64,000 nucleotides of DNA from Chiloscyllium plagiosum (taxonomy: Eukaryota). A model generated the notes under the pieces. The model saw only the letters and a program-made list of their open reading frames with translations. It was not told where the DNA came from and searched no databases. The stretch lies in contig NC_057749.1 in NCBI RefSeq assembly GCF_004010195.1, forward strand, positions 9,832,728 through 9,896,727, read 5' to 3'. Below, in pieces: positions 8,245-62,760 of the stretch (its first letter is position 1; each line of letters begins with the position of its first letter). Position numbers and translations under genes: made by a program.

Positions 8245-8272
8245 CTGATGAAGAGCTTATGCTTGAAACATC
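8245..8272 (+). ncRNA. Minimal hammerhead ribozyme motif, family A (partly degenerate)
   Basis: CTGATGA A GAGC-TTAT-GCTT GAAA CATC. Confidence 0.55.
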
Positions 8273-8477
8273 TACTCTCCTGCTCCTCAGATGCTGCCTG
8301 ATTGGCTGTGCTTTTCCAGCATCACCATATTTGACTCTGATCTCCAGCATCTGCAGTCCTCACTTTCTCTTCAAAAGTATCTCAATCAATATTATAAATT
8401 TTTGACAACTTTTTCAGTCACCTTATTCATGATTTTTGGTTTTCATCTTTGCCACTTAGTGAATGTCAATCCAAATC

Positions 8478-8748
8478 GATCATAGTATCCCTACAGTGCA
8501 GATGGAGGCCATTAAGCCCATTTAGTTGATACTGACCCTCCAAATAGCACCCCAATGGGACACCACCACCACCCCCCTCCAAATCCCTATGACCCCTACA
8601 CATCTTCAAACTCTCGGAGGAAGCCAGAGCATCCAGAGGAAACCCACACAAATATGGGAGAACATGCAAACTGCACAGTCTGGTAAAATCAAACCCAAGT
8701 CCCTGGTACGATAAGGCAATAGTGCTAACCACTGTGGCCATGCTACCC
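8478..8748 (-). mobile_element. V-SINE/HE1-like tRNA-derived SINE
   Basis: Reverse complement of the cagtggttagcact head and the central tttgcatgttctccc..gggtttcc domain. Confidence 0.75.
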
Positions 8749-10379
8749 TAAATGATTTATGTTCAAAAGCATCATTAATTCATTAAACTAATTTTCAAAA
8801 GTGACGATTGATGTACAATGATTAGGAAACTCGGTATAACTGATATTTCAGTTGTATTGAGGTTTTTAATCTTTTATCAGTTCATATATCTGTCTCTATA
8901 ATATCAAACGTTTAAATTATTTTCAAATACATTAAAAATTCAAGCTTCTTTCCTTTACTTTCAAACTATTTATTTCCTTTTGATATTTAAAGTGGAAACT
9001 TACTATACTAGTTTAATATGCAAATTTACAGTCTTTTACAACCACGGTTGTAAGAATCCAATGTTATCTCGTGTCACTACTTCCCAGGTCACAAAATAAG
9101 AATTGTACTTCCAGTTACTGAGACGGTCAGTTAAATGCCTAATTTTTAATCAATTATTAAATAAAAACATGAATTAACCAGGGTTCTTAATAAACACAGT
9201 TAATGATTTATTATTGAAGCAAGACTTAGATTCAGTAAAAATGTATTAATCATTTCACATTCACAGTTGGTCATGTCGAAAAATAAGTGCTTATCCCTCC
9301 AAATATTCCAAAAAAGATGCAAGCACATAGTTCAGGCTGAGAAAAAAGGATTTCTCTGCAGAGGTTGACTTCTGGTGGAAAAATCCAGTTTGGCCAATGG
9401 GTTATTCTTGAAGGCAAAAAGATGAAGACTAGTGCTCCTGATCTGTCACTCTGATGTTCTGGCCATGTGGTCAAATCTGTTGCCTGTAGCATATTTTCAG
9501 AGACAGCTTCCTCAGGAACTACAATAACAAGATGTTCCTTCAGTCTCTCTTTCATGAGAACAAATCGCTTTTGCCCTGAGCTTAGACAGTTACTTGCAGA
9601 AGTAAGAGAGATTAGCTGCTCTGCCTTTCTTGAAGGCTTATTGTCCCTGAACTGAAAATTAAATAAAGCAAACTCTCAAAACTAGTCAACAAAGCAAGCA
9701 GTTATCACTAGTTGTATGACTTCAGGGAAGTCTTTGTGTTATAGTCAGTGTCATACAGCATGGAAACAGACCCTTTGGTCCAACTCATCCATGTCAAATG
9801 GATTTCCCAAAGAAAAATTTGTCCTGCACTGCGACTGTTCTCTTTCCCCTCCCCCCCCCCCCCCCAATCACAAAAATGTTATGTCATTTTGTTTTCTTCA
9901 ACCCAGGTGGTCCCCTTCATAAAGCTTCACTCCCATTTACCAATACTAAAAAGTATTGCTTGTTGTTGAAAGTGGTGCAAGAAGGCCATTCTTCAACTGA
10001 GGATGGTGAAATTCAGCATCTCTAAGTTCTTTTTTTAAATCCTGACTTCTACTCTTGTGTATCTTTTTTCCTTTCTGTGAACTAGTACTTTTATAAGGAG
10101 CAGACAATGGAGCATTAGTTTAAATCAGAAGGGAGATAACATTGCTTCATTGCTCAAGGAAAGGACAACTATTACTCCAAAGGGAATAAAATTTGTAGCA
10201 AGCAGTCACTGGATTATTGATGTCTGATTTGCATCTGCAACCTTAAGCAATATACAGCACAGTGAATAAGTCAGGTGCAGTATGACACAAGGAGTCTGGC
10301 ATGTTTTAAATTCTGCTGGATTGATGACAATATCTTTACCTTCTGTCCATTTTTATTGTTTGTTTGTTCCCATGTTTAG

Positions 10380-10473
10380 CATTACACCATGGATGCTGAT
10401 GGGTTGTGCACGCGTCTCATCACTCCGAAGCTTATGGAAGGGACGGTGGCAGCCCAGGATGAGTTCTCCAGAA
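10380..10473 (+). CDS. CSK: CSK coding exon (end of SH2 / SH2-kinase linker): [31 protein letters not shown](S)
   Basis: tttag acceptor at 10375-10379 and gtgagt donor at 10474; 94 bp. Translation matches the CSK linker (human [32 protein letters not shown], recalled). Upstream SH3/SH2 exons were not found in the window. Confidence 0.95.
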
Positions 10474-10812
10474 GTGAGTGGCAAGTTTGAAACCTGAAAA
10501 TGCTGATTTATTTTGGGCTCCTTAACCCCCATCCTGTACACGTGCACACAGGCAAAAGCACATGTGTCTACTGACAGATGCGCACAGGCACAGATGTTCA
10601 CACAAACTCTGTAATGCACTCCATGGAATGGCGTTTGATGGCATGGACTTCATTGTGACAGCATGATGTTAACACATGTTCTCCTCCTGAAATGAATTGA
10701 TGATTGAAGAGCCATACTCATTGTGAATGCCACCACTGGATGTGCACATATGCTGTGTCGTGACCTCGTGCATGAAATGACACAAAGAAATCGTGCTTGG
10801 GAGTATGAATCA

Positions 10813-11754
10813 TTGGATGTAAGTTTGCTCATTGAGCTGCAAGGTTCATTTCCAGACATTTCATTACCCTACTAGGTAACATTTTCAGTGGGCCTCAAGC
10901 AAAGCAATGCTGAGAATTCCTGCTTTCTGTTTATAAAGTTGGTTCTTCTTTGAGTTGGCGATGTAATTTCCTGTGGTGAAGCGACACTTCCTATTCCTTT
11001 TTTCAGGGGGTGGTAGATGTGGTCTAACTCGATGTGTTTGTTGAGAGAGTTCCGGTTGGAATGCCATGCTTCTAGGAATTATCGTGCATGTCTTTGTTTG
11101 GTTCGTCCTTGGATGTGTTGCTCCAGTCGAAGTGGTGTCCTCCCTCATCTGTATGTGAGGATACTAGTGAGAGAGGGTCATGTCTTTTTGTGGCTAGTTG
11201 GTGTTCATGTATCCTGGTGGCTAGTTTTCTGCCTGTTTGTCCATTGTAGTGTTTGTTATAGTCCTTTGTATTTTGTAAATGACATTAGTTTTGCTCATTG
11301 TCTGTATAGGGTCTTTCAAGTTCATTAGCTGCTGTTTTAGTGTGTTGGTGGATTTGTGGGTTACCATGATGTCAAGGGGTCTGAGTAGTCTGGCAGTCAT
11401 TTCCGAGATGTCTTTGATGCGGGGAGAGTGGCTAGGGTTTCTGGACGTGCTTTGTCTGCTTGTTTGGGTTTGTTGCTGAGAAATCGGTGGACTGTGTTCA
11501 TTGGGTACCAGTTCTTTTTTTAAGTACACTGTATAGGTGATTTTTCTTTGCTCTGCGTGGTTTCTCTGTGCTGCAGTGTGTGTTGGCTCATTGAAATAAT
11601 GTTCTGATGCAGCTTCGTTTGTGGGTGTTGGGATGATTGCTTTTGTAGTTCAGTATTTGGTCAGTATGTGTTGTTTTCCTGTAGATGCTGGTTTGAAATT
11701 CCCCATTGGCTGATCGCTCTACTGTGACATCTAGGAATGGCAGTTTGTTGTTGT
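10813..11754 (-). mobile_element. Penelope-like element remnant (left arm of an inverted pair)
   Basis: Minus-strand LPFLDV..YRKTTHTDQILNY..HP and GIY-YIG-region NVIYKI; 3' HHR. Confidence 0.9.
10855..10888 (-). ncRNA. Hammerhead motif, family C (core mutated to CTGAAAA)
   Basis: Reverse complement: cca CTGAAAA T GTTACC-TAGTAG-GGTAAT GAAA TGTC tgg. Confidence 0.45.
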
Positions 11755-12915
11755 ATCCGATATCAGGGTTCTTAGCACAGGCAGTAATGCAGGGACTCGA
11801 ACAAACAGCTCTGCCAACCATCCAACCCAAACTTTGGGTCTGCTACGTGGATGACACCTTCGTCATCACTAAACGAAACAAATTAGAGGAAACCTTAAAG
11901 ACCATCAATAATACCCTCCCTAGCATAAAATTCACGAAAGAGGAGGAAAACAACAACAACAAACTGCCATTCCTAGATGTCACAGTAGAGCGAACAGCCA
12001 ATGGGGAATTTCAAACCAGCATCTACAGGAAAATAACACATACATACTGACCAAATATTGAACTACAGAAGCAATCAACCCAACACCCACAAACCAAGCT
12101 GCATCAGAACATTGTTTCAACGAGCCAACACACATTGCAGCACCAAGGAACTACTCCGAGCAGAGGAAAATCACCTATACAGTGTGTTCAAAAAGAACTG
12201 GTACCCAATGAACACAGTCCGCCGATTTCTCAGCAACAAACCCAAACAAGCAGACAAAACACGTACAGCAACCCTAGCCACTCTCCCCTGCATTAAAGAC
12301 ATTTCGGAAATGACTGCCAGACTACTCAGACCCCTTGGCATCATGGTAGCCCACAAACCCACCAACACACTAAAACAGCAGCTAATGAACTTGAAAAACC
12401 CTATACAGACAATGAGCAAAACTAACGTCATTTACAAAATACCGTTCTCGGACTGTGACAAACAGGCAGAAAACTAGCCACCAGGATACATGAACACCAA
12501 CTAGCCACAAAAAGACATGACCCCCTCTCACTAGTATCCTCACATACAGGTGAGGAAGAACACCACTTTGACTGGGACAACACATCCATTTTAGGACAAG
12601 CCAAATAAAGACATGCACGAGAATTCCTAGAAGCATGGCATTTCAATCTATCAACAAACACATAGTTAAACCCCTCTACCACCCCCTGAGAAAAGGAACA
12701 GGAAGTGTGACTTCACCACAGGAAGTGACATCACCAACCCAAAGAAACCCAAACATATAAATAGAAAGCAGGAATTCTCAGCATTGCTTTGCCTGAGGTC
12801 CACTGAAGATGTCACCTAATAGCACAATGAAACGTCTGGAAATGAACCTTGCAGCACAGTGAGCAAACCTACGCCCAAAATCTCAATATGAACTACAAAT
12901 CTTCTCAAAACTCGC
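11755..12915 (+). mobile_element. Penelope-like element remnant (right arm): RT motifs plus GIY-YIG region
   Basis: PISGFLA, YVDDTF, LPFLDV, YRK and NVIYKIP motifs; frameshifts and stops; 3' HHR. Confidence 0.92.
12803..12836 (+). ncRNA. Hammerhead motif, family C, in the PLE 3' region (stem II decayed)
   Basis: tcca CTGAAGA T gtcacctaatagcacaat GAAA CGTC tgga; stem I tcca/tgga is intact. Confidence 0.5.
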
Positions 12916-13095
12916 TAAGTTAGAATCGTGTCCCTATATTTAGGCTGATGGCAGCATCTTGTGTATAGACACTTTGAATGGCCTGTTCTGCTGCATGTGC
13001 ATAGTGGCAATATTGTATTTGGTTCAGTCATTTCATTATTAAAATTATTCACTGTCTTCAAAAATCTAGGTATATTGAAAGCCTTCAAAAGCTGA

Positions 13096-13260
<165 letters not shown>

Positions 13261-13774
13261 TGACTTGACATTACTATGCATGGGATTCAGCTGTTTCCTA
13301 TCTTTGTACATTTGTTCTGTTAGTAACTACTGTTTTGTACTTGAGAGAATTTGCTTTGATTTTGAAATATTAGTTATAAATTCATTAAGAATATGTATTT
13401 TGCCGTTTTGTTGAGGGTGATCAGATGGAAATTGCCCTCAGTTTTTAAACATTATCAATATGGCAAACATTTGATATATCTACCCAGCAAATACAGCATG
13501 ACTTTGGGGCTTCCAGTAAAGTTGTGTGATATCAAGAGTTTGAAACGTCTGCCCATCGAGGTCCTGCAGTTAGCAATGAATTTGGTGCTTGAGGGATGAA
13601 TATCAGGCTGAATATCAGAAGAAATCCTCTGCAACTACTGTCATGCAATTTTTTGCAGCTATTCTGAGAAGGTGGATAAGCTCTCACTCCTGTCCGAAAG
13701 GCACTAAAGTATCAGCCTTGGCTGTGATCAATTCCTGGGAGTAGCGTTTGAATGTATAACTGGCTGATATTGTA

Positions 13775-14240
13775 TCTGTTGCTCCCGATGCGGTCTCCTC
13801 TACATTGGGGAGATTGGATGCCTCCTAGCAGAATGCTTTATGGAACATCTCTGGGACACCTGCACCAATCAACCACACCGCCCTGTGCCCCAACATTTCA
13901 ACTCCCCCTCCCACTCTGCCAAGGGCCTCCTTCACCGCCGGTCCCTCACCACCCGACGCCTGGAGGAAGAACGCCTCATCTTCCGCCTCGGAACATTTCA
14001 ACCTCAGGGCATCAATGTGGACTTCAACAGTTTCCTCATTTCCCCTTCCCCCACCTCACCCCAATTCCAAACTTCCAGCTCTATTTCTCCACCCTTCAGG
14101 CACTCTGCTTGTATTCCTGATGAAGGGCTTTTGCTCGAAACGTCGATTTTACTGCTCCTCGGATGCTGCCTGAACTGCTGTGCTCTTCCAGCACCACTAA
14201 TCCAGAATCTGGTTTCCAGCATCTGCAGTCATTGTTTTTA
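13775..14240 (+). mobile_element. Penelope-like element 3' remnant (GIY-YIG, family A terminus)
   Basis: YCICCSRCGLLYIGE..EHL..QHFNSPSHS..LIFRLGTFQPQGIN, followed by an HHR-bearing terminal repeat. Confidence 0.88.
14117..14144 (+). ncRNA. Minimal hammerhead ribozyme motif, family A
   Basis: CTGATGA A GGGC-TTTT-GCTC GAAA CGTC, downstream of a GIY-YIG coding remnant. Confidence 0.75.
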
Positions 14241-14305
14241 CCTGATTCAGAGGCGTGTGATGCTACTATAGGTGACAGCTCTTGGGTCATCTGGATTGGG
14301 ATCAG

Positions 14306-15031
14306 GTTAAAAATCACACAACACCAGGTTATAGCCCAACAGGTTATCTGGAAGTACTAGCTTTAAGAGCACTGTTCCTTCATCAAGTAACTCGTGGGGC
14401 AGGATCATAAGACACAGACTTTATTGCAAAAGATCACAATGTCATGCAATTAAAATGATATTTTGAATGAACCTAGATTGCTGTTAAGTCTTTCATCTTA
14501 TAGAATGGGTTGCAGGTTTCGGTTCATTAATATGTAAATCACAGAACTATTTTTAAGTCACGTTGTTGAGGTAACTTAAGGTTTTATTTTTAAAAAGTGA
14601 CATCTCAGCTCAGACAATTTTTTAAAGGTGTGAGGTTAGAGTCTGTCTGTATTTCAATCTTGAGTCAGACTGAGTCTGTTTCCAAAGTAAACATTTATAA
14701 AATGTTATGTGGATTGACTGCATGTAAGTTGTGTGCTCTTTGAACAAAAATAGAATGTATCTGCAAATGTAAATTCACCTCACTACAACCCATTCTAAAA
14801 GATGAAAGACTTAACTGCAATCTAAGTTTGTTCAATATATCGTTTTAATTGAATGTCACTGTGATCTTTTGCTATAAATTCTGTGTCTTATGATCCTGCC
14901 CCACTCGTTACCTGATGAAGGAGCAGTGCTCTGAAAGCTAGTGCTTCCAAATATACCTGTTGGACTGTAACCTGGTGCTCAGAGTTTTTACTTTGTCCAC
15001 CCCAGCCCAACACCGGCACCTCCCCATTATA
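14306..15031. mobile_element. Fold-back non-coding PLE derivative, family B
   Basis: About 200-bp inverted arms; flanked by gattgggatcag (14294-14305) and gattggaatcag (15032-15043). Confidence 0.8.
14912..14940 (+). ncRNA. Minimal hammerhead ribozyme motif, family B
   Basis: tac CTGATGA A GGAGC-AGT-GCTCT GAAA GCTA gtg. Confidence 0.72.
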
Positions 15032-15470: not shown

Positions 15471-15608
<138 letters not shown>

Positions 15609-16967: not shown

Positions 16968-17132
<165 letters not shown>

Positions 17133-19695: not shown

Positions 19696-19858
19696 GAGAA
19701 AGTGAGGGCTGCAGATGCTGGAGATCAGAGCTGAAAATGTGTTGCTGGAAAAGCGCAGCAGGTCAGCATTCCTGAAGAAGGGCTTATGCCCGAAACGTCG
19801 ATTCTCCTGTTCCTTGGATGCTGCCTGACCTGCGCTTTTCCAGCAACACATTTTCAGC
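19696..19858. mobile_element. 163-bp fold-back HHR element, family A, with a 14-bp TSD
   Basis: TSD tactttctgtatga at 19682-19695 and 19859-19872; arms agctgaaaatgtgttgctggaaaagcgcag / ctgcgcttttccagcaacacattttcagct. Confidence 0.85.
19772..19799 (+). ncRNA. Minimal hammerhead ribozyme motif, family A (intact core)
   Basis: CTGAAGA A GGGC-TTAT-GCCC GAAA CGTC. Confidence 0.78.
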
Positions 19859-35282: not shown

Positions 35283-35487
35283 TTTGGAGGTGCCGGTGTT
35301 GGACTGGGGTGAGCAAAGTTTAAAAATCACACAATACTAGGTTATAGTCCAACAGGTGTATTCGGAGCACTAGCTTGCAGAGCACTGCTTCAGGACAACT
35401 ACCTGATGAAGGAGCAGCGCTCCGAAAGCTAGTGCTTCCAGATAACCGAGGTGAACTATAACCTGGTGTTGTGTGATCTTAAATTAG
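35283..35487. mobile_element. Fold-back HHR element, family B, with a 9-bp TSD
   Basis: TSD ttaaaatga at 35274-35282 and 35488-35496; inverted arms atcacacaatactaggttatag / ctataacctggtgttgtgtgat. Confidence 0.82.
35403..35431 (+). ncRNA. Minimal hammerhead ribozyme motif, family B (intact)
   Basis: tac CTGATGA A GGAGC-AGC-GCTCC GAAA GCTA gtg. Confidence 0.8.
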
Positions 35488-36929: not shown

Positions 36930-37482
36930 GTTGGACCTTCCTTACGCCTCCACTTCTCACCTTTAAACAACTGCCAAACCTTCAACAGACGATTGTTCGC
37001 AGCAAACTACCCAGTCTTCAGGACAACATTGACCACAACACTGTCCAACCCTGTGATATCAACCACTGCAAGACGTGTCAGTGTCGACACAGGTACCACC
37101 ATTAACAATAGGGACACCACCCACCGTGTACGCGGCAGGTACTCGTGTGACTTGGCCAACATTGTCTATCGCATACGCTACAGACAAGAATGCCGTCAGG
37201 CATGGTACATTGACAAGACCAAGCAAAGCTACGTCAACAGATGAATGGACACGACAACAATCAACCGAAAAGGGTGTTCCCTCCTAGTTGGGGAGCACTT
37301 CAGCAGTCAGACATTCAGCCTCGGATCTTTGAGTGACCGTCCTTCAAGGTGGACTTTGGGACAGGCAACAACGCAAAGTGGCCGAGCAGAGGCTGATAGC
37401 CAAGTTCGGTACCCATGAGGATGGCCTCAATCGGGATCTTGGGTTCATGTCATAATACAGGTGATCCCACTGCACTATACAT

Positions 37483-37520
<38 letters not shown>

Positions 37521-38335
37521 GCGCACACACACACATATGCTGTCTATCTCTCAAACGGCACGCACACATAGACCCTCTCTCGAACGCACACGCGTACACA
37601 CACAGACCCTCTCTCGAATGTACACACCCCACACTCACGAAGACCCTCTCTTAAACGCATGCACACACTCACGCAGACCATCTCTCAAACGCGCACACCC
37701 CACACACGCCCTCTCACAGGCTTATACTCCCGTCAACACCCCCACACATGCTTTACCAAGCTTTCACACGCAAACACACACTCACATGTGCACTCGCACA
37801 TGCACTTGTGCGCACACACTCTCTCTCTTTCTCCCCCCCCCCCCCCCCCCCATGCACTCGTGCACACAAGTCTGAGATGAATTTGTATTTGCAGGCATAT
37901 TTTCAGATACATTCTATTTTGCCCAAAAAAATACACAGTCTGCAGACAGTCAACCAATGTAATATTTTGTAAATTCCACTTTGAAAATAGAACCAGTCTG
38001 ATTCAAGATTGGAATACAGACAGACTCTGACCGCACACCTTTTAATGCATCGTCTGAGCTGAGATGTCACGTTTTGTTATAAAACCTTAAGTTACCTTGA
38101 GAAGATGACTTGAAATAGTGGGATTTACATATTAATAAACCGAAACCTGCAACCCATTCTAAAATATGAAAGACTTAACAATCCAGGTTCGTTCAATATA
38201 TCATTTCAGTTGCATGACTCTGTAGACATTGTAATTTTGCTATAAAGTCTGTGTCTTATGATCTTATACTCCACAACCACCTGATGAAGGTGCTTCCAAG
38301 CCTATAACCTAGTGTTCTGTGATTTTAACTTATGT
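36930..38335 (+). mobile_element. Penelope-like element 3' remnant (Cys-rich linker plus GIY-YIG), parent of family B termini
   Basis: QPCDINHCKTCQ..YSCDLANIVYRIRY..WYI; 3' region matches the family B fold-back arms. Its HHR at 38281 has lost stem II and GAAA. Confidence 0.85.
37485..37870. repeat. (CT)n/(CA)n-rich low-complexity tract with repeated cacagaccctctctc units inside the PLE 3' region
   Basis: Directly visible in the sequence. Confidence 0.9.
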
Positions 38336-41288: not shown

Positions 41289-42579
41289 CAAATCCAGTGT
41301 GACTTCTTAAAAACTTCAAGGAGAGTTATTCTGGACTTGAAACATGAACTCTGTTTCCATTTCTACCGATCCTGTTAGACCTGCTCAGTTTCTCCAGCAC
41401 TTTAGTTTAATTTCAAAATGTTGAGCATTTGGAATACCTGCTTTCATTCCTCTTGGCTACCCTTTCCAACTTGAGTCCCACAGAGATAGCTGGCCAATGG
41501 AAACAGCTTAGTAATCTGCTTATTTCCAAGCTGTTGCCCAATGTTGGGAGCGTTTTTATTAATGGGGAAGGAAATCATATACAGAATATAGTTCAAGTTG
41601 GTTTTATGTATTTCTAATGTATTTTTACATTAGTACCTCTACAATTGCAGGGTAAAAGGAGTCTGAACTTCTAAAGAGGAGTGGGTAATAAAACTACTTC
41701 ACAAATTACCAAAACTGCCATTTTAACTTGAAAAAAATGTTTTTTAGTTCCATCTAATTACTAAATGTTTGAATTTGTACAGTAGGATTTGGGTATAGAC
41801 ACACTTAGCATTTATGGACAGTGAAATTAAATTATTGAAGTTAATGAGGCAACTCCAAATTTTGAAGTGAAACTAGTCTGAATACTCCAGCCATTTCTCT
41901 TTCTGGAAAACCAAAACTATAGTTTGACAAAGTTCAAAATGTTGGATTTCACTAAAAATTGTATATCTGAGTCTCTGCGCCTGCTATTACAAAGGCACAT
42001 CTTCAGCTCTGTTTATACAAACACAGAAGACAGGAGCAGTCGGAGGCTATTCGGCCCTTTGAGTCTACTCTGCCATTCATCCCAATCATGGCTGATGGAT
42101 GCTGCCTGAACTGCTGTGCTCTTCCAGCACCACTGATCCCATCCAACCTAATAGCCTAATCCTGCTTTCTCCCCATAATCATTGACCTTGTTCACCCCAA
42201 GTGCTATATCTAGCTGCCTCTTGAATACGTTCAATGTTTTGGCATCAACTATTTCCTGTGGTAAAAATTCCACAGGCTCACCACTCTTTGGGTGAAGAAA
42301 TGTCTCCTCATCTCCATTCTAAATGGTCCACCCTGAATCCTCAGACTGTGATCTCTGGTTTTGGACACACCCACCATCGAGAACATCCTCCCTGTCTAGT
42401 CCTGTTGGAATTTTATAAGTGTCTAGGAGAATCCCCCCCTCATTTGTCTGAACTCCAGCAAAAACAGTCCTAACCTTGTCAATCTCACGTCAACGTCAGT
42501 CCACCATCCCCGGAATCACTCTGGAAAATCTTTGCTTCGCTCCCTCGAGAGCAAGAGCATCCTTCCTCAGAAAAGGAGA

Positions 42580-43160
42580 AGTTTCAGAAATGACAGCCAG
42601 ACTACTAAGACCCCTCGGCATCCTAGTAGCGCACAAACCCACCAACACTCTCAAACAAAAACTAACAAACTTAAAAGACCCAGTACAACCCACGGACAAA
42701 ACCAACGTCATCTACAAAATTCCATGCAAGGACTGCCACAAACACTACGTAGGACAAACAGGATACACCAACACCAGCTCGCCACAAAAAGACACGATCC
42801 TCTCTCCCTCGTAACACTACTCACGGATGAAAAAAAACACCATTTCGACTGGGACAACACATCTATCCTGGGACAGGCTAAGCAAAGACATGCCAGAGAA
42901 TTCCTAGAGGCCTGGCACTCCAACCACAACGCCATAAACAAACACACAGATTTAGATGCCATCTATCAACCCCTCAAAAAAACTAACAGGAAATGACATC
43001 ACCACAAACCCCAGGAACCCCATCCAGGACAAACATATAAATAGAAAGCAGGAGACAACAGCTTTGCTTCACTTGGAGGTCGCCACTGATGATGTTACCT
43101 AGCCAGGTAATGAAACGTTTGGATATCAAACCTACAGCTCAGCGAGCAAACCTACACCCT
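42580..43160 (+). mobile_element. Penelope-like element 3' remnant (family C) inserted into a CR1 remnant (about 42020-43262, -)
   Basis: NVIYKIPCKDCHKHYVGQTG GIY-YIG; HHR at 43086; TSD aaaggaga at 42572-42579 and 43161-43168. Confidence 0.9.
43086..43119 (+). ncRNA. Minimal hammerhead ribozyme motif, family C (intact)
   Basis: cca CTGATGA T GTTACCT-AGCC-AGGTAAT GAAA CGTT tgg. Confidence 0.78.
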
Positions 43161-47540: not shown

Positions 47541-49724
47541 ACCAAAGATTTTTTAACCTAGGTACCTTTGTACCTATGATGGCACAGACACTGTGACATT
47601 ATGGAAAAGTCAAGAAATAAAGTTAGAAGTTTGACATTGTAACTCTCAAGTGCTGAGCTCCGACTCCCCACAAGGGTTCAATGTCCTCCGCATTGGGCTC
47701 CATCTCCCCATGCTCGATGCCGGGGGACCTCTATCATCACCGCCTTGGGCTCACTCTCTCGCTCTTCCCCGCCCTCTCTCACCGTCCCCTGCGCTGGCTC
47801 GATCTCTCCATAGAAGGTACATAGATTAAAATAAGACAAACAAAAAACTGTGAAGCAAGAAAAAGGAAAAGTGGGTGATTGGATCTGTGCAGGAGCTTAC
47901 AGGTTGTGTTGCTACTTCACTGCTATCTTGGATATCAAAAAAAAATCATTGTGTATAAAGTTAAAGAACAATAGTTATAATTATATTTGATTGTCTATAA
48001 TTCAGAATTGATTCTTGCAATATTGTTAAGTATAAAATAGTTGTTGTTTCCCACTTAAATTCTCATGAGGCCATGTCCACACATCAACATTGAGAAGTTA
48101 GAATTGTCAGTGCTGATAATTGAGAAACTTAAAAAAAACAATTGTTTCTGCTACAATGTACTTAATTACGTTCCACCCTGAGATAACTGTTCTGGTTTTA
48201 AAACTGCTTAAGGGAACAAAGATTTCATTATTGGACCCCAGTCTATAGCCATTAAATCTAAGTCAGGCAGCTTTAAAGGACTGCAAAGGCTGGAAATCTG
48301 AATCAAAAGCAGAAATTGCTGGAGAAACTCAGCAAGTCTGGCAGCGTCGTTAGAGAGAGAGAAACAGAGTTAACATTTTGAGTTCAGTGACCTTTCTTCA
48401 GAACCCTTAACCTCTGCGTTTTGCTCACTTTTTAAGACAATCCTAAAAGTCTAGCTCTTTCTCCAACCAAATATTTCATCTGAATATCTCTCTGCAGCTA
48501 AAAAAAAGTGGTTATTGATTCTTATAAAATCTTTTGGGACATTTTATGATTGTAATCATGCTATGTAAATGCAAGTTAATTTGCTATCTACTCTGGTTAA
48601 CCCAACAAGTGTTCAAAGTCTTGAATTGCTGTAAGATTCCCTTACGTACATGCTAGAGGAGATGAATTAGTTAATGACTTGTTGTGGGTAATGCTGGAGG
48701 AGATAGACTAATTAAAATCTTCCTGTTGGTAACATTGTTGCGCTGAACACTGAAATTCATGAAAAAAAGTGATTCGTTGCTTATCCTGTTGCAACTTAAA
48801 AAAAAAGCATTTCCTGCGGTAGATCTTGAGCAAGGTCACAGCAGATTCATTTGTGCTCTGGGATTGTACATGATGAAAAAGCGCTGAATGATAAATGTGG
48901 GCAAACCATGAGGCTGCTACATGGTGAGCATTCAGGCTCAATGCAATATGGCACAGATGTGTGGACTTGTGTATATTTTCTCTGCCTGCTCCATTCTGTT
49001 CTGCTTTGCCAAAGTTCCCTGTTTGCATTTTCCCTGTATCTTCGATGGTGTTCTACGCTTCCATGTTGATTTCTGACTTCATCATTGTAATGCAATTTAG
49101 AATTGATTCTTGCAAGAAAGTATAAAATATTTGTCCACCACCTAAATCCTCATCTACAATTCATAACGGCACAGCAATATTCTAAAATTCTTATGTCAGG
49201 ATTCTCAGTGCTGATATTGATAAACTTAAAGAATGTTGTTTCTGCTACAGTATATTATAGATATATTCAATCCTTAGATAACTCATGGTTTGACAACCGC
49301 TTGGGTGGTAAAGACATTTCATTATGGGACTCAGTCTATAATTGCTAAAACTAACCCAGTCAGCTGTGAATGTAGAAATTGCTGGAGAAACTCAGCAGGT
49401 CTGGCAGCATCTGTGGAGAGAGAAAGCAGAATTATTGTTGAAGAATCCAGTGACCCTCCTTCAGAACGCTAAATCTCTGCCTTTTGCTCCCTTTTTTAAA
49501 AAAAGATAATCCTTAAAATCCAGCTCTTTCTCCAACTAAACCTGTTCATTCTAATGTCTCTCTGTGGCTGAAAAAAAGTGGTAATTGATTCCTATAGTGT
49601 GCTTTGGGAAAATTTGTTAGTGTGACTTGTTATGGACCAGACTAAACTCCCTCAAAATATATTCTGGATTAGTGGTGCTGGAAGAGCACAGCAGTTCAGG
49701 TAGCATCCAAGGAGCTTCGAAATT

Positions 49725-49752
49725 GATGTTTCGAGCAAAAGCTCTTCATCAG
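49725..49752 (-). ncRNA. Hammerhead motif, family A, at the 3' end of an RT-coding PLE
   Basis: Reverse complement: CTGATGA A GAGC-TTTT-GCTC GAAA CATC. Confidence 0.68.
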
Positions 49753-50097: not shown

Positions 50098-51081
50098 NNN
50101 NNNNNNNNNNNNNNNNNNNNNNNNNNNNNNNNNNNNNNNNNNNNNNNNNNNNNNNNNNNNNNNNNNNNNNNNNNNNNNNNNNNNNNNNNNNNNNNNNNNN
50201 NNNNNNNNNNNNNNNNNNNNNNNNNNNNNNNNNNNNNNNNNNNNNNNNNNNNNNNNNNNNNNNNNNNNNNNNNNNNNNNNNNNNNNNNNNNNNNNNNNNN
50301 NNNNNNNNNNNNNNNNNNNNNNNNNNNNNNNNNNNNNNNNNNNNNNNNNNNNNNNNNNNNNNNNNNNNNNNNNNNNNNNNNNNNNNNNNNNNNNNNNNNN
50401 NNNNNNNNNNNNNNNNNNNNNNNNNNNNNNNNNNNNNNNNNNNNNNNNNNNNNNNNNNNNNNNNNNNNNNNNNNNNNNNNNNNNNNNNNNNNNNNNNNNN
50501 NNNNNNNNNNNNNNNNNNNNNNNNNNNNNNNNNNNNNNNNNNNNNNNNNNNNNNNNNNNNNNNNNNNNNNNNNNNNNNNNNNNNNNNNNNNNNNNNNNNN
50601 NNNNNNNNNNNNNNNNNNNNNNNNNNNNNNNNNNNNNNNNNNNNNNNNNNNNNNNNNNNNNNNNNNNNNNNNNNNNNNNNNNNNNNNNNNNNNNNNNNNN
50701 NNNNNNNNNNNNNNNNNNNNNNNNNNNNNNNNNNNNNNNNNNNNNNNNNNNNNNNNNNNNNNNNNNNNNNNNNNNNNNNNNNNNNNNNNNNNNNNNNNNN
50801 NNNNNNNNNNNNNNNNNNNNNNNNNNNNNNNNNNNNNNNNNNNNNNNNNNNNNNNNNNNNNNNNNNNNNNNNNNNNNNNNNNNNNNNNNNNNNNNNNNNN
50901 NNNNNNNNNNNNNNNNNNNNNNNNNNNNNNNNNNNNNNNNNNNNNNNNNNNNNNNNNNNNNNNNNNNNNNNNNNNNNNNNNNNNNNNNNNNNNNNNNNNN
51001 NNNNNNNNNNNNNNNNNNNNNNNNNNNNNNNNNNNNNNNNNNNNNNNNNNNNNNNNNNNNNNNNNNNNNNNNNNNNNNNNN
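50098..51081. other. Assembly gap (N run)
   Basis: 984 Ns. Confidence 1.
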
Positions 51082-51513: not shown

Positions 51514-51645
51514 CTGGCGAAAGTGGGTACTGCAGATGCTGGAGATTAGAGTCAAGATCAGAGTGGTGCTGGAAAAGCACAGCAGGTCAGGCAGCATTTG
51601 AGGAGCAGAAAAATCGACGTTTCGGGCAAAAGCCCTTCATCAAGA
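51514..51645 (-). mobile_element. Solo family A HHR terminal unit with a 12-bp TSD
   Basis: TSD atttcattctgg at 51502-51513 and 51646-51657. Confidence 0.82.
51616..51643 (-). ncRNA. Hammerhead motif, family A (first core C mutated to T)
   Basis: Reverse complement: TTGATGA A GGGC-TTTT-GCCC GAAA CGTC. Confidence 0.55.
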
Positions 51646-51904
51646 ATTTCATTCTGGATGCAATTTGATTGGCCAAACAACCAGTCTTAAAGCAAAACAT
51701 ACTTTGTTCGTGCATAATAGTTAAAAATACAAAAAAAGAAAGGACTGGAATAACTTTAATGGAAAACTTAATGGAATAATAAATCACTTAACCATTAAAC
51801 AGTAACTTTCAATATCCCTTAAACACACCCAAATTCAGTAAAATAGATGGTCTCACATGCAATTCTTCAGTCCAGAAGGAAAAACATGAAGAGAAAACTC
51901 TGAG

Positions 51905-52288: not shown

Positions 52289-52430
52289 CTTTCTGATTCC
52301 TGATGAAGGGCTTTTGCCCGAAACGTCGATTTTCCTGCTCCTCGGATACTGCCTGACCTGCTGTGCTTTTCCAGCACCACTCTAATCTAGACTCTGATTT
52401 CCAGCATCTGCAGTACCCACTTTTGCCCAA
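52289..52430 (+). mobile_element. Solo family A HHR terminal unit with a 9-bp TSD
   Basis: TSD ttggtacct at 52280-52288 and 52431-52439. Confidence 0.82.
52300..52327 (+). ncRNA. Minimal hammerhead ribozyme motif, family A (consensus-perfect)
   Basis: CTGATGA A GGGC-TTTT-GCCC GAAA CGTC. Confidence 0.8.
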
Positions 52431-52769: not shown

Positions 52770-53260
52770 CGTCCTATTTGCCACGTTATTTCAAAGAGTT
52801 ATATTTAGAAAATGTGTGTGTGTTGGGGGGGGGATTGTTTTAAAAATAACTTCAAGTTTGAACCTTTTGTAGAGGAGGTTCTAGGTAACGATGTATTTTG
52901 GTACAGCTGGATGTAGCCTATGTTAGTGCAAGGGACCCTGAGCAATGAACTAACTTGGGAGCTTGTTGGCTCTTGAGCCAAGCAGCGGCAGCCAATGGCT
53001 TGCTGCCGAGTAGCTCTCCCATGTGGGACCGGTGGCGCTTGCGGCGCAGTGGAGGGCGAGCGAGCGAACGATGGTTGTGTGTGTGTTGCTCCTGTTGGCC
53101 TGGCTCCCTGCTCCCATCCTCAGCCTGAAGCCAGTGAGCGCCCACCGCCGCTTCGAATACAAGCACAGCTTCAAAGGTCCGCACCTGGTGCTGCAAGATG
53201 GTACCATCCCTTTTTGGACCCACCACGGCAGTAAGTTCTACAAACCTTTCCCGGGGGAAG
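52770..53260 (+). promoter_or_regulatory. Promoter and small CpG-rich island of the LMAN1L gene
   Basis: Local CpG enrichment at about 52960-53260; CCAAT at 52992-52996; TGCCACGTTA at 52779-52788. Confidence 0.55.
53071..53230 (+). CDS. LMAN1L: LMAN1-like (ERGIC-53 family) lectin exon 1: signal peptide plus start of the lectin domain, MVVCVLLLLAWLPAPILSLKPVSAHRRFEYKHSFKGPHLVLQDGTIPFWTHHG
   Basis: ATG in strong Kozak context (acgATGg), hydrophobic leader, HRRFEYKxSFKGPHL motif, gtaagt donor at 53231. Lies downstream of CSK on the same strand, as human LMAN1L does. Confidence 0.88.
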
Positions 53261-53757
53261 GGCAAATTCCAAACTTTGCAAGCTCATTTACAAACTACTT
53301 CTCCAGTGTCTCTCTGCAGCCACTTGTGCTGGTGTGTGCAGTAAAACTAGCAAAACAATGTTTGAGGGTCGGACATACGGTGGGTTGTTTGTTTTAAATT
53401 TTCTGAGCTCTTGCTGTGAGTTTTCTGCAGTGACACTGCTGGCCAGGAAGTTTCCTCATGAAATCTTCCTCCTTTTCAATATTAGCTGCTGCTTAAAACC
53501 TGGTGTCTCTTTTACACGTGCACCGCACACCTCTGTGGGGGCTATCAGTTACACATTGTTTCTGTACAAAAGTTCTCATTCTGTAGTGTGGGGCATTCTA
53601 TCTTTTAGAAAATTGCTGTTACCATACTGAATAAAATTACACGGCCCGGATATGAACCTGGCCTTAAAATGATGTGAATTCAGATAAATATTAGTGGACT
53701 ACCAAACATAGGTACAGAAGTCTGATGGTATTCAGCCTCTGCAGTTTACATTCTGGA

Positions 53758-53967
53758 TTTGGAGGTGGACTGGGGTGTACAAAGTTAAAAATCACAAACA
53801 CCAGGTTATAGTCCAATGGGTTTAATTGGAAGCACTAGCTTTCGGAGCGCTGCTCCTTCATCAGGTGGTTGGGGATGAAGGGTGATGAAGGAGCGTCGCT
53901 CCGAAAGCTAGTGCTTCCAATTAAACCTGTTGGACTATAACCTGGTGTTGTGTGATTTTTAACTTTG
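53758..53967. mobile_element. Fold-back family B element with an HHR on each strand and an 11-bp TSD
   Basis: TSD tacattctgga at 53747-53757 and 53968-53978; near-perfect inverted arms of about 85 bp. Confidence 0.86.
53836..53864 (-). ncRNA. Minimal hammerhead ribozyme motif, family B (intact); a second copy with a mutated core is on + at 53882-53910
   Basis: Reverse complement: cac CTGATGA A GGAGC-AGC-GCTCC GAAA GCTA gtg. Confidence 0.8.
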
Positions 53968-54098
53968 TACATTCTGGAGGTTGATCTGTTTTTAACATTT
54001 TATTCTCAGAATGTGGGGGTGTCACCATCTGGGGTTTAGATCAGAGTGGTGCTGGAAAAGCACAGCAGGTCAGGCAGCATCCGAGGAGCAGGAAAATC

Positions 54099-55574: not shown

Positions 55575-56815
55575 AGAATATGAAAACAAAAAACACAGTG
55601 TGTCAGGCAGCATCCATGGGGAGAGAACAAGCTAATGTTTTGAGTCTAGGTGACTCTTCATCAGAGCTGATGTGAAGTTAGAGGGGGCAGCATTGATGCG
55701 ATTAGTGCGGGGGTGGTGGAGCTCTGGGGGAGAAAGGATGTTAATAGTGCAGATTAAGTGATTGCATTGTGAGAATGGAAGAACAATGGTGTGTCTAACT
55801 GCCAGACTGGCAGGAACAGACAGTCCCACTGGGGTGGGGGGAGGGGAGAGAGGACATGGTGACAGAGAATGTAACAAGGTTAGCTAAAAGAAAGCAAAAG
55901 AATGGGGGTGGGTTCACAAGGTGAAGGTGTTGAACTCTATATTAAGCCCAAAAGCTGTGAAGTGACTCGTCTGAAGATGAGGTGTTGTTCCTCCAATTGG
56001 TGCTGTGATTCACTGGAACACTGCAGCATGCTGAGGACAGACACATGGGCAGGGCGCTGTTAAGATGACCGGCTATGGGAAGGTGTTCTGTAAAGCGGTC
56101 ACCCAGTCTGTGTTTGGTTTCTCCAGTGTAGAGTAGGCCACATTGGGTGCAGCAAATACAATACATAAGATTGGAGGAGGTACCGGTGAAATATTGCTTC
56201 ACCTGGAAAGACTGTTTAGGCCCTTGGATGGTGAGTAGGGAGGAGGTGAAGGGGCAGGTGTTGCATCTTCGGTGGGAAGGGGTTGGTGTAGGTAGTGAAG
56301 GAATAGACTACGGTGTCCCAGAGGAAACAATCCTTACAAAATACAGATGGGGAGTGAGGGAATGATGTGATTGGTGGTGATGTTCAGCTGGAATTGTCCG
56401 AAATGGTGGAGAGTGATCCTTTTCAATGCGGTAGCTGGTGGGATGAAAAGTCAGGACCATGGGAACCCGATCATACTGTCGTGACTGATGGGAAGGGGCA
56501 AGGATGGAAGCACGGGTGATAGGTCAGATTTGGTTGAGGGCCCTGTTTTAGAAAGTAGCATCATCCGAATATGTATGCTGTTGGTGAAGGAATTGGGGGA
56601 ATGGGATAGAGTCCTTGGAGGTCGCGGGGTGTGACGAGGTATAGTGAGCCTAGATATGGGAGTCAGTGGCTTTGTAGCGGTTGGCACTGGACAGTTTATC
56701 TCCAAAATGGAGAGGGGATGATGGGGAGTGAAGGTGCAGAGGGACTGGACATCCATGGCGAACAGGAGGCAGTTAGGGCTGAGGTATTGGAAATTGTCAA
56801 TATGGTGGACGGCAT
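55575..56815 (-). mobile_element. Decayed Penelope-like element inserted in an old LINE remnant (about 55190-57060)
   Basis: SSNLMYCICCTQCGLLYTGETKHRLGDRFTEHL; degenerate HHR at 55634-55664 (GAAA changed to AAAA). Confidence 0.82.
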
Positions 56816-59194: not shown

Positions 59195-59403
59195 AGAACT
59201 GCAGATGCTGTAAATTGGGGACAAAAACAGAAATTGCTGGAAAAACTCAGCAGGTTTGGCAGCATCTGTGGAGAGAAATCAGAGTTAACTTTTCAGGTCC
59301 AGGGACCCTTCCTGAACTGCACTTGACTCAAAATGTTGACTCTGATTTCTCTCCACTGATGCTGCCGGACCTGCTGAGCTTTTCCGGCAATTTCTGTTTT
59401 TGT
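59195..59403. mobile_element. Fold-back element of a related PLE terminal family
   Basis: Arms acaaaaacagaaattgctggaaaaactcagcagg / cctgctgagcttttccggcaatttctgtttttgt. Solo relatives near 32825, 48290 and 49375. Confidence 0.72.
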
Positions 59404-59937
59404 CTCTGAAGGTAATAGCGAATTGATTTCTCGAACTGCAACCCATGCAGTTTGACATTCCTGTATCAGTTTGATACCAATGACTGAGTTGCCTGCTGGA
59501 CCTTTCCAGAGGGTGGTTAAGAGATGACCATGTTGCTTCGGGTCTGGAGTCACATGTAGGCCGGACGACTTAAGAATGGCAGATTTCCTTCCCCAAAGGA
59601 TATCAGTGAACAGGATGGATTTTTGCGACCACCCAATATAGTCACGATTCTTAAGACTGACTTTCAATTCAGATTTATTTATTACTTTTGATTTTGAATT
59701 CTGTCAGTTGTCATGACGGGATTTGACTCCTTGTCCAAGATCATTAGCCTGGCCTCCTGAGTTATTGGTACTGTGATGTTACAACTATGCCACTATATTT
59801 ATGTTCACTGCATCAAGTTGCATTCTAAACTATTAAATTTTGAACCAGTTAGGCAAATGTCACCAGTCACCCTTCTTTGTATAACGTATTAGTTTTAAGG
59901 TAAGGAGCAGTGACCATTTGCTTTTATTCCTTTTCAG

Positions 59938-60092
59938 ATGCCCTTCCCAGCTCTGAACGCATTCGAGTTGTTCCCTCAATGAAAAGCCAAAGTGGATCAG
60001 TTTGGACCAAGAGTAATGCAGCGTTTGAGAACTGGGAAATAGAAGTTTCATTTCGGATAAGTGGCAGGAACAGAATTGGAGCTGATGGATTG
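59938..60092 (+). CDS. LMAN1L: LMAN1L exon 2: (N)ALPSSERIRVVPSMKSQSGSVWTKSNAAFENWEIEVSFRISGRNRIGADGL
   Basis: ttttcag acceptor and gtgtgt donor; 155 bp; in phase with exon 1; GADG lectin motif. Confidence 0.92.
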
Positions 60093-61870
60093 GTGTGTTT
60101 TTCCTTTATTACCAAACATAATCTCTGTAAGAGTTTCCTCGATGTCCATGAGATACAAACAACTTATTGTCACCTGATGCAAAGGGAGTCCGTGACTAGA
60201 CTTAAACAATTGCTCAAAACATTCTCAATTTTGAATTGAATTGGCTTTATTGTCACGTACGCAAATGAGTACAGTGAAAGGTTTTTATAAGCCACTACTA
60301 CCGTGCCATCATATTGTACCTGGGTACCTTTGTACCTGCTCTGTGACAAAATAGAGGAATGAAGAAAAACAAAGTTAGATTGAGCTATGCACAGTATAAC
60401 CATCGGCCAGAAAAACAAGCCAAGTTACAAGATAAACATCTCAGTGCCTCTCTGCAGCAAACCAACACAGGGGGCCTCCACCTGGTCTGATTGCTGTCTG
60501 CTGTCATGCTCCACTCCAGGCCACTGGTTGCCACACTCCGCACAGGGCACTGCCCGTTGGCGCCAATGTTCCAGAGGCCGGGTGGCTGGGGTTGATGGAG
60601 GAAAGAGGCAGAACAGAAGGAAACAAATGGGCAGAGCAGAGGAGCATCTTATTTTGCTGCTGTCTTACTGGGAGATTTGGTGTCTACGAATTCTCTGAAT
60701 AGTTGGTGTTTTTACTCCCCCACACCCATGACTTTGTTTGCATTGTATTACGGAACACGGCTCTCCTAAAATGGGTTAAGCACTTGACTGTGGATGGTGT
60801 ATTATACAAAAGTAAAACAAACACTTTAATTCATACCCTTTGCTAATGTCACAGGAACCGGGTTGAGAAGCAGTTTAAGGTAACTTACTTTCTGCACGCA
60901 CAAATGCATTCCTGAATGAGTGGATGATTGAGCACTCCTCCTACCCAATCAAATGTTGAGCTGAAAAGGATTCAAGATGGTGATGAAATCTTGAAATCTA
61001 TCGCGGTGAACTATGAGTAAGGGACACGCAGTGAATCCCTCTCTCTCTTGAGGGATCTTATGCCATCTTTCTATCAACCTTTTGCCCATCATTCATGTTT
61101 CATCTGGTTCTAAGGGTGTCGGCTGTTTAGCCTATTACTTCAGATTTTGACTCCAGTTTGTGTCTTTTATGAATTTACAGTTTTGAGTTATATCTCCAAT
61201 TGTTTCACATAATTGTAAGAAGTATGCAGTTGTGATGGTGAATATACTTCAACTCACAATAAATCCTGTCAGTTTAAGTTTGCCATCGTTCTACATACAA
61301 TGCTTAGGAGAACGCACCTAAATCAGTTTTCCAAATGACCCTTGTTTTAACAAAAGCAAAGTTCATTGTGTTTTTAAAATGCCATTGACAGTAATTGATT
61401 CAACTCTTTAATAAGTAAACATAACTCCAAAGTATTATCATTGAAAATAAGATGCTTTAATATTGACAACTGTTTGTGTGATGACCTTATTTAATATTGT
61501 GCGTAATCCAATCTTCAGAACCCTGCGAACTTTGTACATTTTATTGCACCTTGAATAAATTAAAGTGGTGCCACATCCTTTAGAGTTTGTTTGCTCATGC
61601 TCACGATGTGAACTAGCATTAGCGGAAGAGGCAATCTCATCTCCAACCTCTGTGTCTGCTCTCTGTGCCCCAGTGGATAGACTAAGGCGACTTTTTATTC
61701 TCCTCCCTTAGTATCCCCCCCATGCTTGTTGGGAGAGAGTGCTGAACATGCAAGGTTCCACAATACAAATGGTGTGAACCTGCTTTATCAGCAAAGGCAG
61801 ACACAAATTGTGATGTATAATGTGAATCCACCTATATGGGCAGATGCTCAATCCTTTCCTGTTATCACAG

Positions 61871-61978
61871 GCCATATGGTATACCAGAGAAAAGGGACCG
61901 ACAGGGCCGGTTTATGGCGCAGTTGATCACTGGGATGGAGTTGGCATCTTCCTTGACACATACGACAATGACGGCAAG
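61871..61978 (+). CDS. LMAN1L: LMAN1L exon 3: AIWYTREKGPTGPVYGAVDHWDGVGIFLDTYDNDGK
   Basis: cacag acceptor and gtaagt donor; 108 bp; Ca2+-binding D-x-x-D-N-D loop. The gene continues beyond the window. Confidence 0.92.
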
Positions 61979-62279
61979 GTAAGTCAGAAAGGTGGTGCTG
62001 CTTGAGTAAAGTGCGTACGTGAAAGTTTGAAGTTAATGACAATCATTGTTTTGCTTTAAATCAGAATGACTGCTACAATAGGGTCATCTTGAATAATGTC
62101 TGCAATCTTTGCAGCCCTATATGCATTCAAGTTGTTTTTGATTATCCTGTCAAAATTAGAATTCAGTGTTCCCATTCTGTTTTTAAAAAAATATTCTTAT
62201 GTGATTATTGCTGTTAAGGCTGGCATTTATTTCCTATTGCTAATTGTCCATGAACTGAGTGGTTTGCCAGGCCATTTCA

Positions 62280-62760
62280 GAGTAGACAAGCAGGAGGCTG
62301 GAAGAACACAGCAAGCCAGGCAGCGTCAGGAGGTGAAATCAATGTTTCGGGTATAACCCTTCTTCAGGAATGGAGGTGGGGATAGGGATATAAAGGAGGG
62401 GTGCTGTTATGCGTGGGGAGAGGGTCAGCATGGTGAGGTAGTGATAGGTGAATAGGGGTGGTTGGTATGTCCTGGTTGGTCAATAGGAGGAATGAATCCA
62501 ATTGGTGGCTGGAAGGAAGGGTCAGTCAGAGGAATGGAAGGGAGGAGGGGGTGGGGGATGGGTGGGAAGGTTATTTGACATTGGAAAACTCAACTTTGAG
62601 TCCTCCAGACTGTAGGCTGCCCAGGCAGAAGATGAGGTGTTGTACCTCCAATTTGTGGTCTGATTCACTGTGGCAGTGGAGGAAGCCGAGGATGGGCATG
62701 TCGGAAAGGGAGTGGGAAGGGGAATTAAAATGGGTGGTGACTGGGAAGTTAGGTTGGCCA
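62280..62760 (-). mobile_element. Decayed PLE 3' remnant
   Basis: Similar to the endonuclease C-terminus at 55575-56200; HHR at 62341. Confidence 0.7.
62341..62367 (-). ncRNA. Hammerhead motif (family A variant with a different stem II)
   Basis: Reverse complement: CTGAAGA A GGGT-TAT-ACCC GAAA CATT, at the end of a PLE remnant. Confidence 0.6.

Follow-up and report, generated by a model that had tools for sequence, protein, structure and literature searches.

Minimal hammerhead motifs in Penelope-like elements and their short derivatives in the genome of the shark Chiloscyllium plagiosum

A stretch of 64,000 nucleotides from the genome of the shark Chiloscyllium plagiosum (contig NC_057749.1, positions 9,832,728 to 9,896,727 of the forward strand; hereafter the window) was analysed for hammerhead ribozyme motifs, which an earlier, sequence-only reading had described as a dispersed system in three families linked to Penelope-like elements (PLEs). 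The motifs are real and stand well above chance, and they are of the known type of PLE minimal hammerhead. Very probably, they are minimal, helix-III-less type I hammerheads that reside in the 3'-terminal non-coding region (the pseudo-long terminal repeat, pseudo-LTR) of endonuclease-containing (EN+) PLEs and in short non-coding derivatives of these elements, that are kept through their position at the 3' end, and that would be cleaved as dimers. The families themselves are real, whereas the word system fits less well, because most genomic copies are inert, decaying relics.

Abundance, anatomy and covariation of the motifs

The pattern CTGANGA-N8-30-GAAA has 17 matches in the window, compared with a mean of 5.73 (standard deviation 2.44, maximum 13) in 100 dinucleotide-preserving shuffles, none of which reached 17. 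Read together with their flanks, 11 of the 17 belong to families A, B and C of the earlier reading, namely 8245+, 14117+, 19772+, 49729-, 52300+, 54103- and 62345- to family A, 14912+, 35403+ and 53840- to family B, and 43086+ to family C. Two further matches are decayed relatives (12803+, of C, and 30166+, D-like), and four lie outside every family (1510-, 6700+, 9495- and 33239+), which is the number that chance predicts. Homology searches added the relics 51616-51643- (C3 changed to U), 53882-53910+ (C3 changed to G), 14358-14387- and 10855-10888-, as well as relics of family D (32916-32943-, 48371-48401-, 49433-49464- and 59286-59351) and of family E (55634-55664-). The dispersion of hammerhead motifs over the window was therefore borne out; the figure of at least 13 motifs stands once the relics found by homology are counted, whereas by pattern only 11 belong to the three families. 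The descriptor search that had been proposed for the window was carried out, and under a strict descriptor seven family members are fully intact (14117, 14912, 19772, 35403, 43086, 52300 and 53836-64). A covariance model (R1) trained on 16 motifs of family A recovered eight family A copies in the window and was too sequence-specific for families B to E.

A wider sample of 264 kb, consisting of the window and 200 kb of flanks, was scanned with the two core boxes as sole anchors; the wider context of families B and C was also drawn from it. It contains 47 core-box matches; the reversed sequence has 6, and 20 shuffles had 7.65 on average. A stem II of at least 4 bp with one unpaired base after A9 was found in 27 of the 47 (register 0: one of 47; shuffles: 0.1), and A-NN'-U-H was likewise present in 27. 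All three helices were present in 20 matches, and in none of the reversed or shuffled controls. The idea that AT-rich repeats match a permissive pattern by accident could draw on the four window matches without a family, for which about 5.7 would be expected by chance. Its probability is practically nil in view of the 20 full motifs and of a genome-wide excess of about 110-fold over the reversed pattern (see below), and a chance origin is ruled out by these two sets of controls.

The conserved boxes of the hammerhead are present: C3-A9 (CUGANGA), G12-A14 with A15.1 (GAAA), U16.1 and the H17 cleavage triplet. Stem II is GGGC/GCCC in family A, GGAGC/GCUCC in family B, GUUACCU/AGGUAAU in family C, GGGUC/GACCC in family D, which has a GUU site, and GAGUC/GACUC in family E; the predicted cleavage sites are GUC in A, CUA in B and GUU or GUC in C, D and E. 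The single unpaired position that follows A9 is occupied by U in family C and by A in the other four families. The closing pair G10.1-C11.1 was found, with G.U at 10.1-11.1 in family C, and helix III has no hairpin loop and consists of the palindrome ACGU or AGCU. The three stem II types, the ACGT or AGCT helix III and the GAGC/GCTC copy at 49725-52 are as first described, helix III of the latter copy being disrupted (ACAU) as well. The three families first described are real types, but their number had been set too low, because at least five families, including D and E, are present in the window.

Base pairing was analysed in 46 distinct core-box matches of the 264 kb, background matches included. 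A first MAFFT alignment of all families had misplaced B and C, and pairs were therefore counted by a script with registers set by the core boxes alone. Position I.1 of helix I was paired in 29 of the 46 matches, compared with 3-7 with a slid partner (CG 18, UA 5, AU 4), and position I.2 in 37, compared with 6-8 (UA 22, CG 7, AU 4). Positions 15.2-16.2 of helix III were complementary in 32, compared with 5-18 (CG 19, GC 4, AU 4). Stem II.1-II.4 was paired in 33-37 matches, with slid controls that were partly high because of GGG/CCC runs; II.1 comprised GC 23, GU 8 and AU 3, and II.2-II.4 had three to six pair types each (II.4: CG 19, UA 7, GC 5, AU 3). This check for covariation, which the sequence-only reading had put forward, thus revealed several pair types across families for each of helices I, II and III, and it upheld the view that pairing and core are kept while the stems differ between families.

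Genome-wide, the exact A 28-mer occurs in 18,175 copies, exact B in 2,601 and exact C in 35, each with zero matches to the reversed-pattern control. The pattern CTGANGA-N9-21-GAAACGTH is found 168,302 times, compared with 1,533 for the reversed pattern (about 110-fold), which corresponds to about 47 core-intact motifs per Mb and confirms the expectation of a very large genome-wide population of ribozyme motifs. When decay of the helix III CpG is allowed (GAAAYRTH), the numbers rise to 287,935 and 4,963, respectively. The helix III CpG is kept in about 58% of these 287,935 motifs with both boxes, which points to recent bursts of activity. About 4,000 minimal hammerheads in the coelacanth and about 9,000 in Xenopus are given in PMC4209133, and 'up to 120,000' hammerheads in PMC7229834 for the much larger axolotl genome; the descriptors differ between studies, so that these numbers are not strictly comparable and our sole claim is that the shark population is very large. 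The motif contains two CpGs, C11.1-G12 and C15.2-G16.2, which read CA or TG in decayed copies (GAAACATC at 8245, 49725 and 54099; AAAACATT at 55634). The CpGs are the fastest-decaying sites of the motif, so that methylation-driven decay is expected to disable copies sooner than changes at an average site would.

The double change in stem II of the copy at 49725, which had been described as compensatory, was followed through the genome:

Stem II GGGC/GCCC (unchanged): 126,899 copies genome-wide
Stem II GAGC/GCCC (A.C): 2,826 copies genome-wide
Stem II GGGC/GCUC (G.U): 2,486 copies genome-wide
Stem II GAGC/GCUC (both changed): 1,865 copies genome-wide

Independence of the two changes would predict about 55 doubles, and GAGC/GCUC is thus in excess by about 34-fold. 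The doubles largely represent one lineage, which was amplified with both changes: among the first 100 that were listed, most have U at N7 and the loop UUAU. This shows that a source element with a repaired stem II has spread.

Link to Penelope-like elements and structure of the copies

GIY-YIG-type sequence is seen in translations upstream of the motifs. The PLE open reading frames (ORFs) of the window are remnants only, and Pfam searches with the window's own ORF pieces gave weak RVT_1 matches only. The family A piece (P0002) is 54-70% identical to shark proteins of the reverse transcriptase (RT)/GIY-YIG type, and its homologues P0005 and P0008 score RVT_1, then GIY-YIG. Relatives of the family C piece (P0003) reach up to 85% identity, and the longer ones (P0018 and P0021) likewise have RVT_1 followed by GIY-YIG; some GIY-YIG scores of the homologues are slightly under the Pfam cut-off. 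The nearest proteins are annotated from carpet sharks. Local tblastn with shark proteins located EN remnants at 13768-14091+, 36938-37334+, 50097-49880-, 56703-55943- and 62777-62574-, and a hammerhead follows on the same strand within 30-300 nt in four of these five cases (A at 14117, A at 49752, E at 55664 and A at 62367). The motif stands about 100 nt past the ORF stop and about 95-135 nt from the 3' end of the element, and homology stops about 100 nt past the cleavage site in all eight fetched loci with an exact A1 core.

The proposal that each family can be traced to a PLE remnant in the window is correct for family A (13768-14091, 50097-49880 and 62777-62574) and, via the RVT_1/GIY-YIG homologues, for family C; for family B, for which position 36930 had been named, it is weak. 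A family B hammerhead was looked for past the EN remnant 36938-37454 and was not found, a microsatellite being present there. About 45 nt of the ORF end and of the 3' untranslated region of this remnant can be aligned with sequence that precedes long B copies, with 25 invariant columns, and a link is plausible, if weakly so. At 37480-37860, where the hammerhead would be expected, the remnant gives way to a (CT)n tract, after which come about 350 nt of degenerate repeats rich in CA/CTCTC, with a C19 run. PLEs have been reported to favour microsatellite targets (Craig et al. 2021).

The hammerheads, relics and PLE remnants of the window are as follows:

8245..8272, + strand: family A hammerhead, GAGC/GCU(U) subfamily; the decayed helix III reads ACAU
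10815-11406: inverted family C fragment with hammerhead relic 10855-10888 (-)
11697..12836, + strand: family C PLE remnant; ORF pieces from the C-terminus of RT and the start of EN; decayed hammerhead 12803-12836
13768..14091, + strand: GIY-YIG endonuclease remnant of a family A PLE (YCICCSRCGLLYIGE...), 57-70% identical to shark RT/GIY-YIG proteins in tblastn
14117..14144, + strand: family A hammerhead, intact (G.U at 10.2-11.2), 26 nt past the EN remnant 13768-14091
14912..14940, + strand: family B hammerhead (GGAGC/GCUCU, AGCU, A17), head to head with the decayed B copy 14358-14387 (-)
19772..19799, + strand: family A2 hammerhead, intact, N7=A, loop UUAU, preceded by an inverted partial arm (19699-19766)
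32916-32943, 48371-48401 and 49433-49464, - strand: other family D relics
35403..35431, + strand: intact family B hammerhead; inverted arm, decayed, at about 35320-35400
36938..37454, + strand: PLE EN remnant ending ...GLNRDLGFMS*, followed by a (CT)n/CA-rich repeat
43086..43119, + strand: family C hammerhead (GUUACCU/AGGUAAU, GUU site), 92 nt past the ORF remnant 42427-42993
49725..49752, - strand: family A hammerhead with compensated stem II GAGC/GCUC, helix III decayed, downstream of the EN remnant 50097-49880
51516..51647, - strand: short family A unit with the target-site duplication CCAGAATGA(A); hammerhead 51616-51643 with C3 changed to U
52296..52425, + strand: short family A unit with intact hammerhead 52300-52327; begins ATTC and has the direct repeat TTGGTACCT on both sides
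53766..53971, both strands: family B palindrome with intact hammerhead 53836-53864 (-) and opposite arm 53882-53910 (+), which has G for C3
54099..54126, - strand: family A hammerhead, helix III CpG decayed (ACAU)
55634..55664, - strand: family E hammerhead relic (GAGUC/GACUC), both CpGs decayed
55943..56703, - strand: RT C-terminal and GIY-YIG remnant upstream of the family E hammerhead
59286..59351, both strands: family D inverted pair of decayed hammerheads
62341..62367, - strand: family A variant with stem II GGGU/ACCC, helix III decayed, downstream of the EN remnant 62777-62574

Runs of N are present at 50098-51081 (984 bases) and at 7185-7225 (41 bases). The longer one ends a family A PLE copy just upstream of its EN remnant, so that its full length cannot be read in the window. 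An RVT_1 match at 7339-7626 (-; E 2.2e-12) adjoins no hammerhead and may belong to another class of retroelement, such as a long interspersed nuclear element (LINE).

The architecture of the copies was read from BLAST searches of family seeds against the 264 kb. Many copies are 5'-truncated, and head-to-head inverted pairs, the arrangement in which families B and D usually occur, are frequent. The tail GGATGCTGCC[T/A]GACCTGCTG...TTTTCCAGCA is common to families A, D and E, and that of family B differs. The copies thus show 5' truncation, partial tandems, an adjacent inverted truncated copy and a variable 3' tail, all of which are traits of EN+ PLEs: Craig et al. 2021 describe PLE insertions as truncated at the 5' end, partly in tandem, with a variable tail and with an inverted, truncated copy at their 5' end, and they report hammerheads close to the 3' ends.

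Tandems of family A are scarce. A motif end (stem II...GUC) is followed by the next core after 55-85 nt in 102 places, some of which form mini-arrays in which the unit recurs about every 44-54 nt or 103 nt. Whole hammerhead units make up mini-satellites, the periods being about 45, 54 and 103 nt, at C39596:298-517, C6:10710400-10710611 and C10:64121052-64121459; their unit runs from just past the GUC site through a short piece of tail and back to the next core. They look like the products of serial template jumps or of rolling-circle copying of very small RNAs. The existence of such arrays would agree with the view that the short units are retrozyme-like non-autonomous elements that spread via small, self-cleaved and circularised RNAs copied by the PLE RT, and a 2026 preprint derives animal retrozymes from PLE pseudo-LTRs. 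However, there are only these 102 tandem places compared with 126,899 family A cores, single units start before the hammerhead and not at the cleavage site, and the motifs are without the helix III and the loop contacts of canonical retrozyme hammerheads. We therefore regard this explanation as very improbable.

Many family A copies begin at (A)TTCC, 3-4 nt before C3, and are not randomly truncated. Direct repeats of at least 7 nt between the upstream flank and the 3' side were found for 9 of 18 A-type 5' ends, compared with one in a shifted control, and repeats of at least 8 nt for 4 of 18, compared with none. Target-site duplications that abut the start are CCAGAATGA(A) at 51648-, CACAAATGC(C) at 57.5 kb left of the window and CACTGCCA at 3.4 kb left of it; another one, ACACATGG, which lies 40 kb to the right, was identified by eye. 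The start point of helix I is often the junction of inverted pairs, and family B arms begin within about 8 nt of C3. A hammerhead cuts 3' of its core, and consequently its own cleavage cannot produce a 5' end at helix I. A possibility is that this end represents a transcription start, or a processing or template-switch event that is tied to the folded motif.

These 5' ends bear on an alternative in which the block is conserved for a non-catalytic reason, as core promoter and transcription start of the pseudo-LTR or as a fold recognised by the RT, in which case the likeness to a hammerhead would be a fossil or a passenger feature. In short copies with target-site duplications the start does lie 3-4 nt before C3, with the excess of direct repeats just given, and family A copies start with TCATTCC or TTATTCC, which we take to be initiator-like. 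The low in vitro activity and the dispensability for insertion in published work (see below) point in the same direction. However, the starts of family B lie outside the initiator pattern, and the nucleotides of the catalytic core, the NUH site and three covarying helices are kept over at least five families with unrelated stems and tails, which is specific for hammerheads and not for a promoter. The non-catalytic alternative is therefore improbable, and hammerheads proper are the preferred reading.

It is conceivable, although we regard it as doubtful, that the short units of about 95-135 bp flanked by target-site duplications form a distinct and hugely successful class of non-autonomous retroposons, the RNA of which would run from the first nucleotide of helix I to the PLE tail, with a 5' end that is set in several families by a start site or by processing coupled to the ribozyme. 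If so, the ribozyme would be the obligatory 5' module of the transposition template in the short units, and with more than 10^5 copies and about 47 core-intact motifs per Mb the genome may hold the densest natural hammerhead population known.

Mode of action and evidence bearing on function

Retention of the motif can be accounted for by its position. It lies in the last approximately 130 nt, and reverse transcription starts at the 3' end, so that truncated, inverted and short copies nearly all keep it, and this retention in nearly every copy explains why the motif is so dense. Target-primed reverse transcription would copy the motif-bearing 130 nt or so first. The palindrome ACGU or AGCU is unable to form a closed hairpin but allows two RNAs to pair with each other, and catalysis would therefore involve dimers. 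In the RNAs of source elements, two motifs would pair via the palindromes into one shared helix III of 4 bp, and the 5' flank of each RNA would pair with the 3' flank of the other to form two intermolecular helices I. Each RNA would then be cut after GUC, CUA or GUU, as is suggested by published work, and the protein of the element may assist cleavage. The likely purpose would be the processing of tandem or read-through transcripts. A dimer model was proposed by Forster et al. 1988 and is found in Cervera and de la Pena 2014 (PMC4209133).

Several points weigh against catalytic hammerheads. Helix I comprises just 2-4 bp in the commonest A1 and A2 forms (C-G, U-A, U.U at position 3, A-U). In co-folds with ViennaRNA, dimers were favoured by 3-7 kcal/mol, mostly not in the hammerhead pairing. 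The excess of GAGC/GCUC stems, being mostly due to one amplified subfamily, counts as about one evolutionary event. The curated Rfam hammerhead models (types I, II, III, HH9 and HH10) had no match in the window at the gathering score or at E values up to 10, and no match on an 81-nt stretch around 52300; these models expect a helix III hairpin. Published minimal hammerheads of PLEs cleave weakly in vitro (PMC4209133), the hammerhead of the Anolis PLE PAc depended on protein, with in vitro insertion not requiring hammerhead catalysis (PMC11167929), and Naiad PLEs proliferate without hammerheads (Craig et al. 2021). The sole notable result of the Rfam search was a miRNA-like score for the family B palindrome.

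The RNA data comprised two raw poly(A) single-cell runs (X20 and X21, which are 3'-biased) and two sets of contigs. Reads over the repeats were found on both strands in X20 and not at all in X21, and no pile-ups of molecule starts or ends over the repeats were seen in the 3'-biased single-cell reads. Because 99% of the aligned reads run on into sequence unlike the window locus, they stem from other copies. In one poly(A) single-cell run, hundreds of reads have A-runs right past 53937 (273 reads) and 53940 (334 reads), about 12-15 nt past an ATTAAA in the tail of family B (window 53921-53940, +). It thus seems that transcripts are polyadenylated at copies of the B tail; most of these reads come from other copies of the repeat. 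The ORF pieces 53014-53394 (+) and 59904-60236 (+) match Lectin_leg-like (E 1.2e-13 for 59904-60236), and 53056-53230 is covered by a tentative 1,963-nt RNA contig and by single-cell reads. Taken together, these matches and this coverage place the repeats in or beside introns of an expressed LMAN-type lectin gene.

Relation to known hammerhead systems

Minimal hammerheads (min-HHR) in the pseudo-LTRs of metazoan PLEs were described in 2014 by Cervera and de la Pena (PMC4209133), and all four sequence hallmarks listed in that paper were found in the shark. The min-HHR and the shark motifs are alike in the CUGANGA and GAAA boxes, the unpaired base between A9 and 10.1, the G10.1-C11.1 pair, the absence of a helix III loop, the palindromic 15.2-16.2 and the short helix I. 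They also share the many consensus families per genome, the association with RT/GIY-YIG ORFs, and the mostly solitary occurrence with some motifs on opposite strands 100-700 bp apart. They differ in the host lineage and in the far higher copy number in the shark, to the extent that differing descriptors allow this comparison. Poseidon PAc of Anolis carolinensis (Mob DNA 2024, PMC11167929) is likewise a vertebrate EN+ PLE with a pseudo-LTR hammerhead, and its 3' 'tail' is also set by internal initiation of reverse transcription. However, the ORF of PAc begins inside stem II, whereas the shark motif lies about 100 nt past the ORF stop and is followed by no ORF in the copies seen.

The non-LTR retrozymes and satellite hammerheads of newt and axolotl (PMC7229834) are also type I, non-autonomous and PLE-linked, and they function better as dimers. 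They form tandem repeats of 150-450 bp with a canonical helix III, loop-loop contacts and circular RNAs, whereas the shark units are minimal, 95-135 bp in length and scattered, and seldom stand in tandem. With a tandem spacing of 55-85 nt in just 102 places and with minimal motifs, the shark units fall outside the non-LTR retrozymes. The Sm-alpha and Sj-alpha retroposons of schistosomes, which resemble short interspersed nuclear elements (SINEs), are likewise short, dispersed, non-coding and equipped with a hammerhead. They contain canonical hammerheads behind a tRNA-like pol III promoter, whereas in the shark units the ribozyme motif is the first module and the tail is of the PLE type. Lunse, Weinberg and Breaker reportedly described, in RNA Biol in 2017, small PLE-associated hammerhead variants without stem III that cleave as dimers; these variants would share the loop-less helix III, the PLE association and the dimer mechanism with the proposal made here.

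PLEs as such are already known in sharks. A literature search yielded no paper that joins Penelope, shark and hammerhead ribozyme, save a review in which 'shark' refers to what the motif looks like. The present results add cartilaginous fish to the hosts of PLE minimal hammerheads. For genome annotation, the motifs should be masked as PLE-derived repeats and not be listed as ribozyme genes. The unusually large and young population represents a natural mutation series for a ribozyme with an unsettled cellular role, and the common 5' end at helix I offers a handle on what the ribozyme does for the element.

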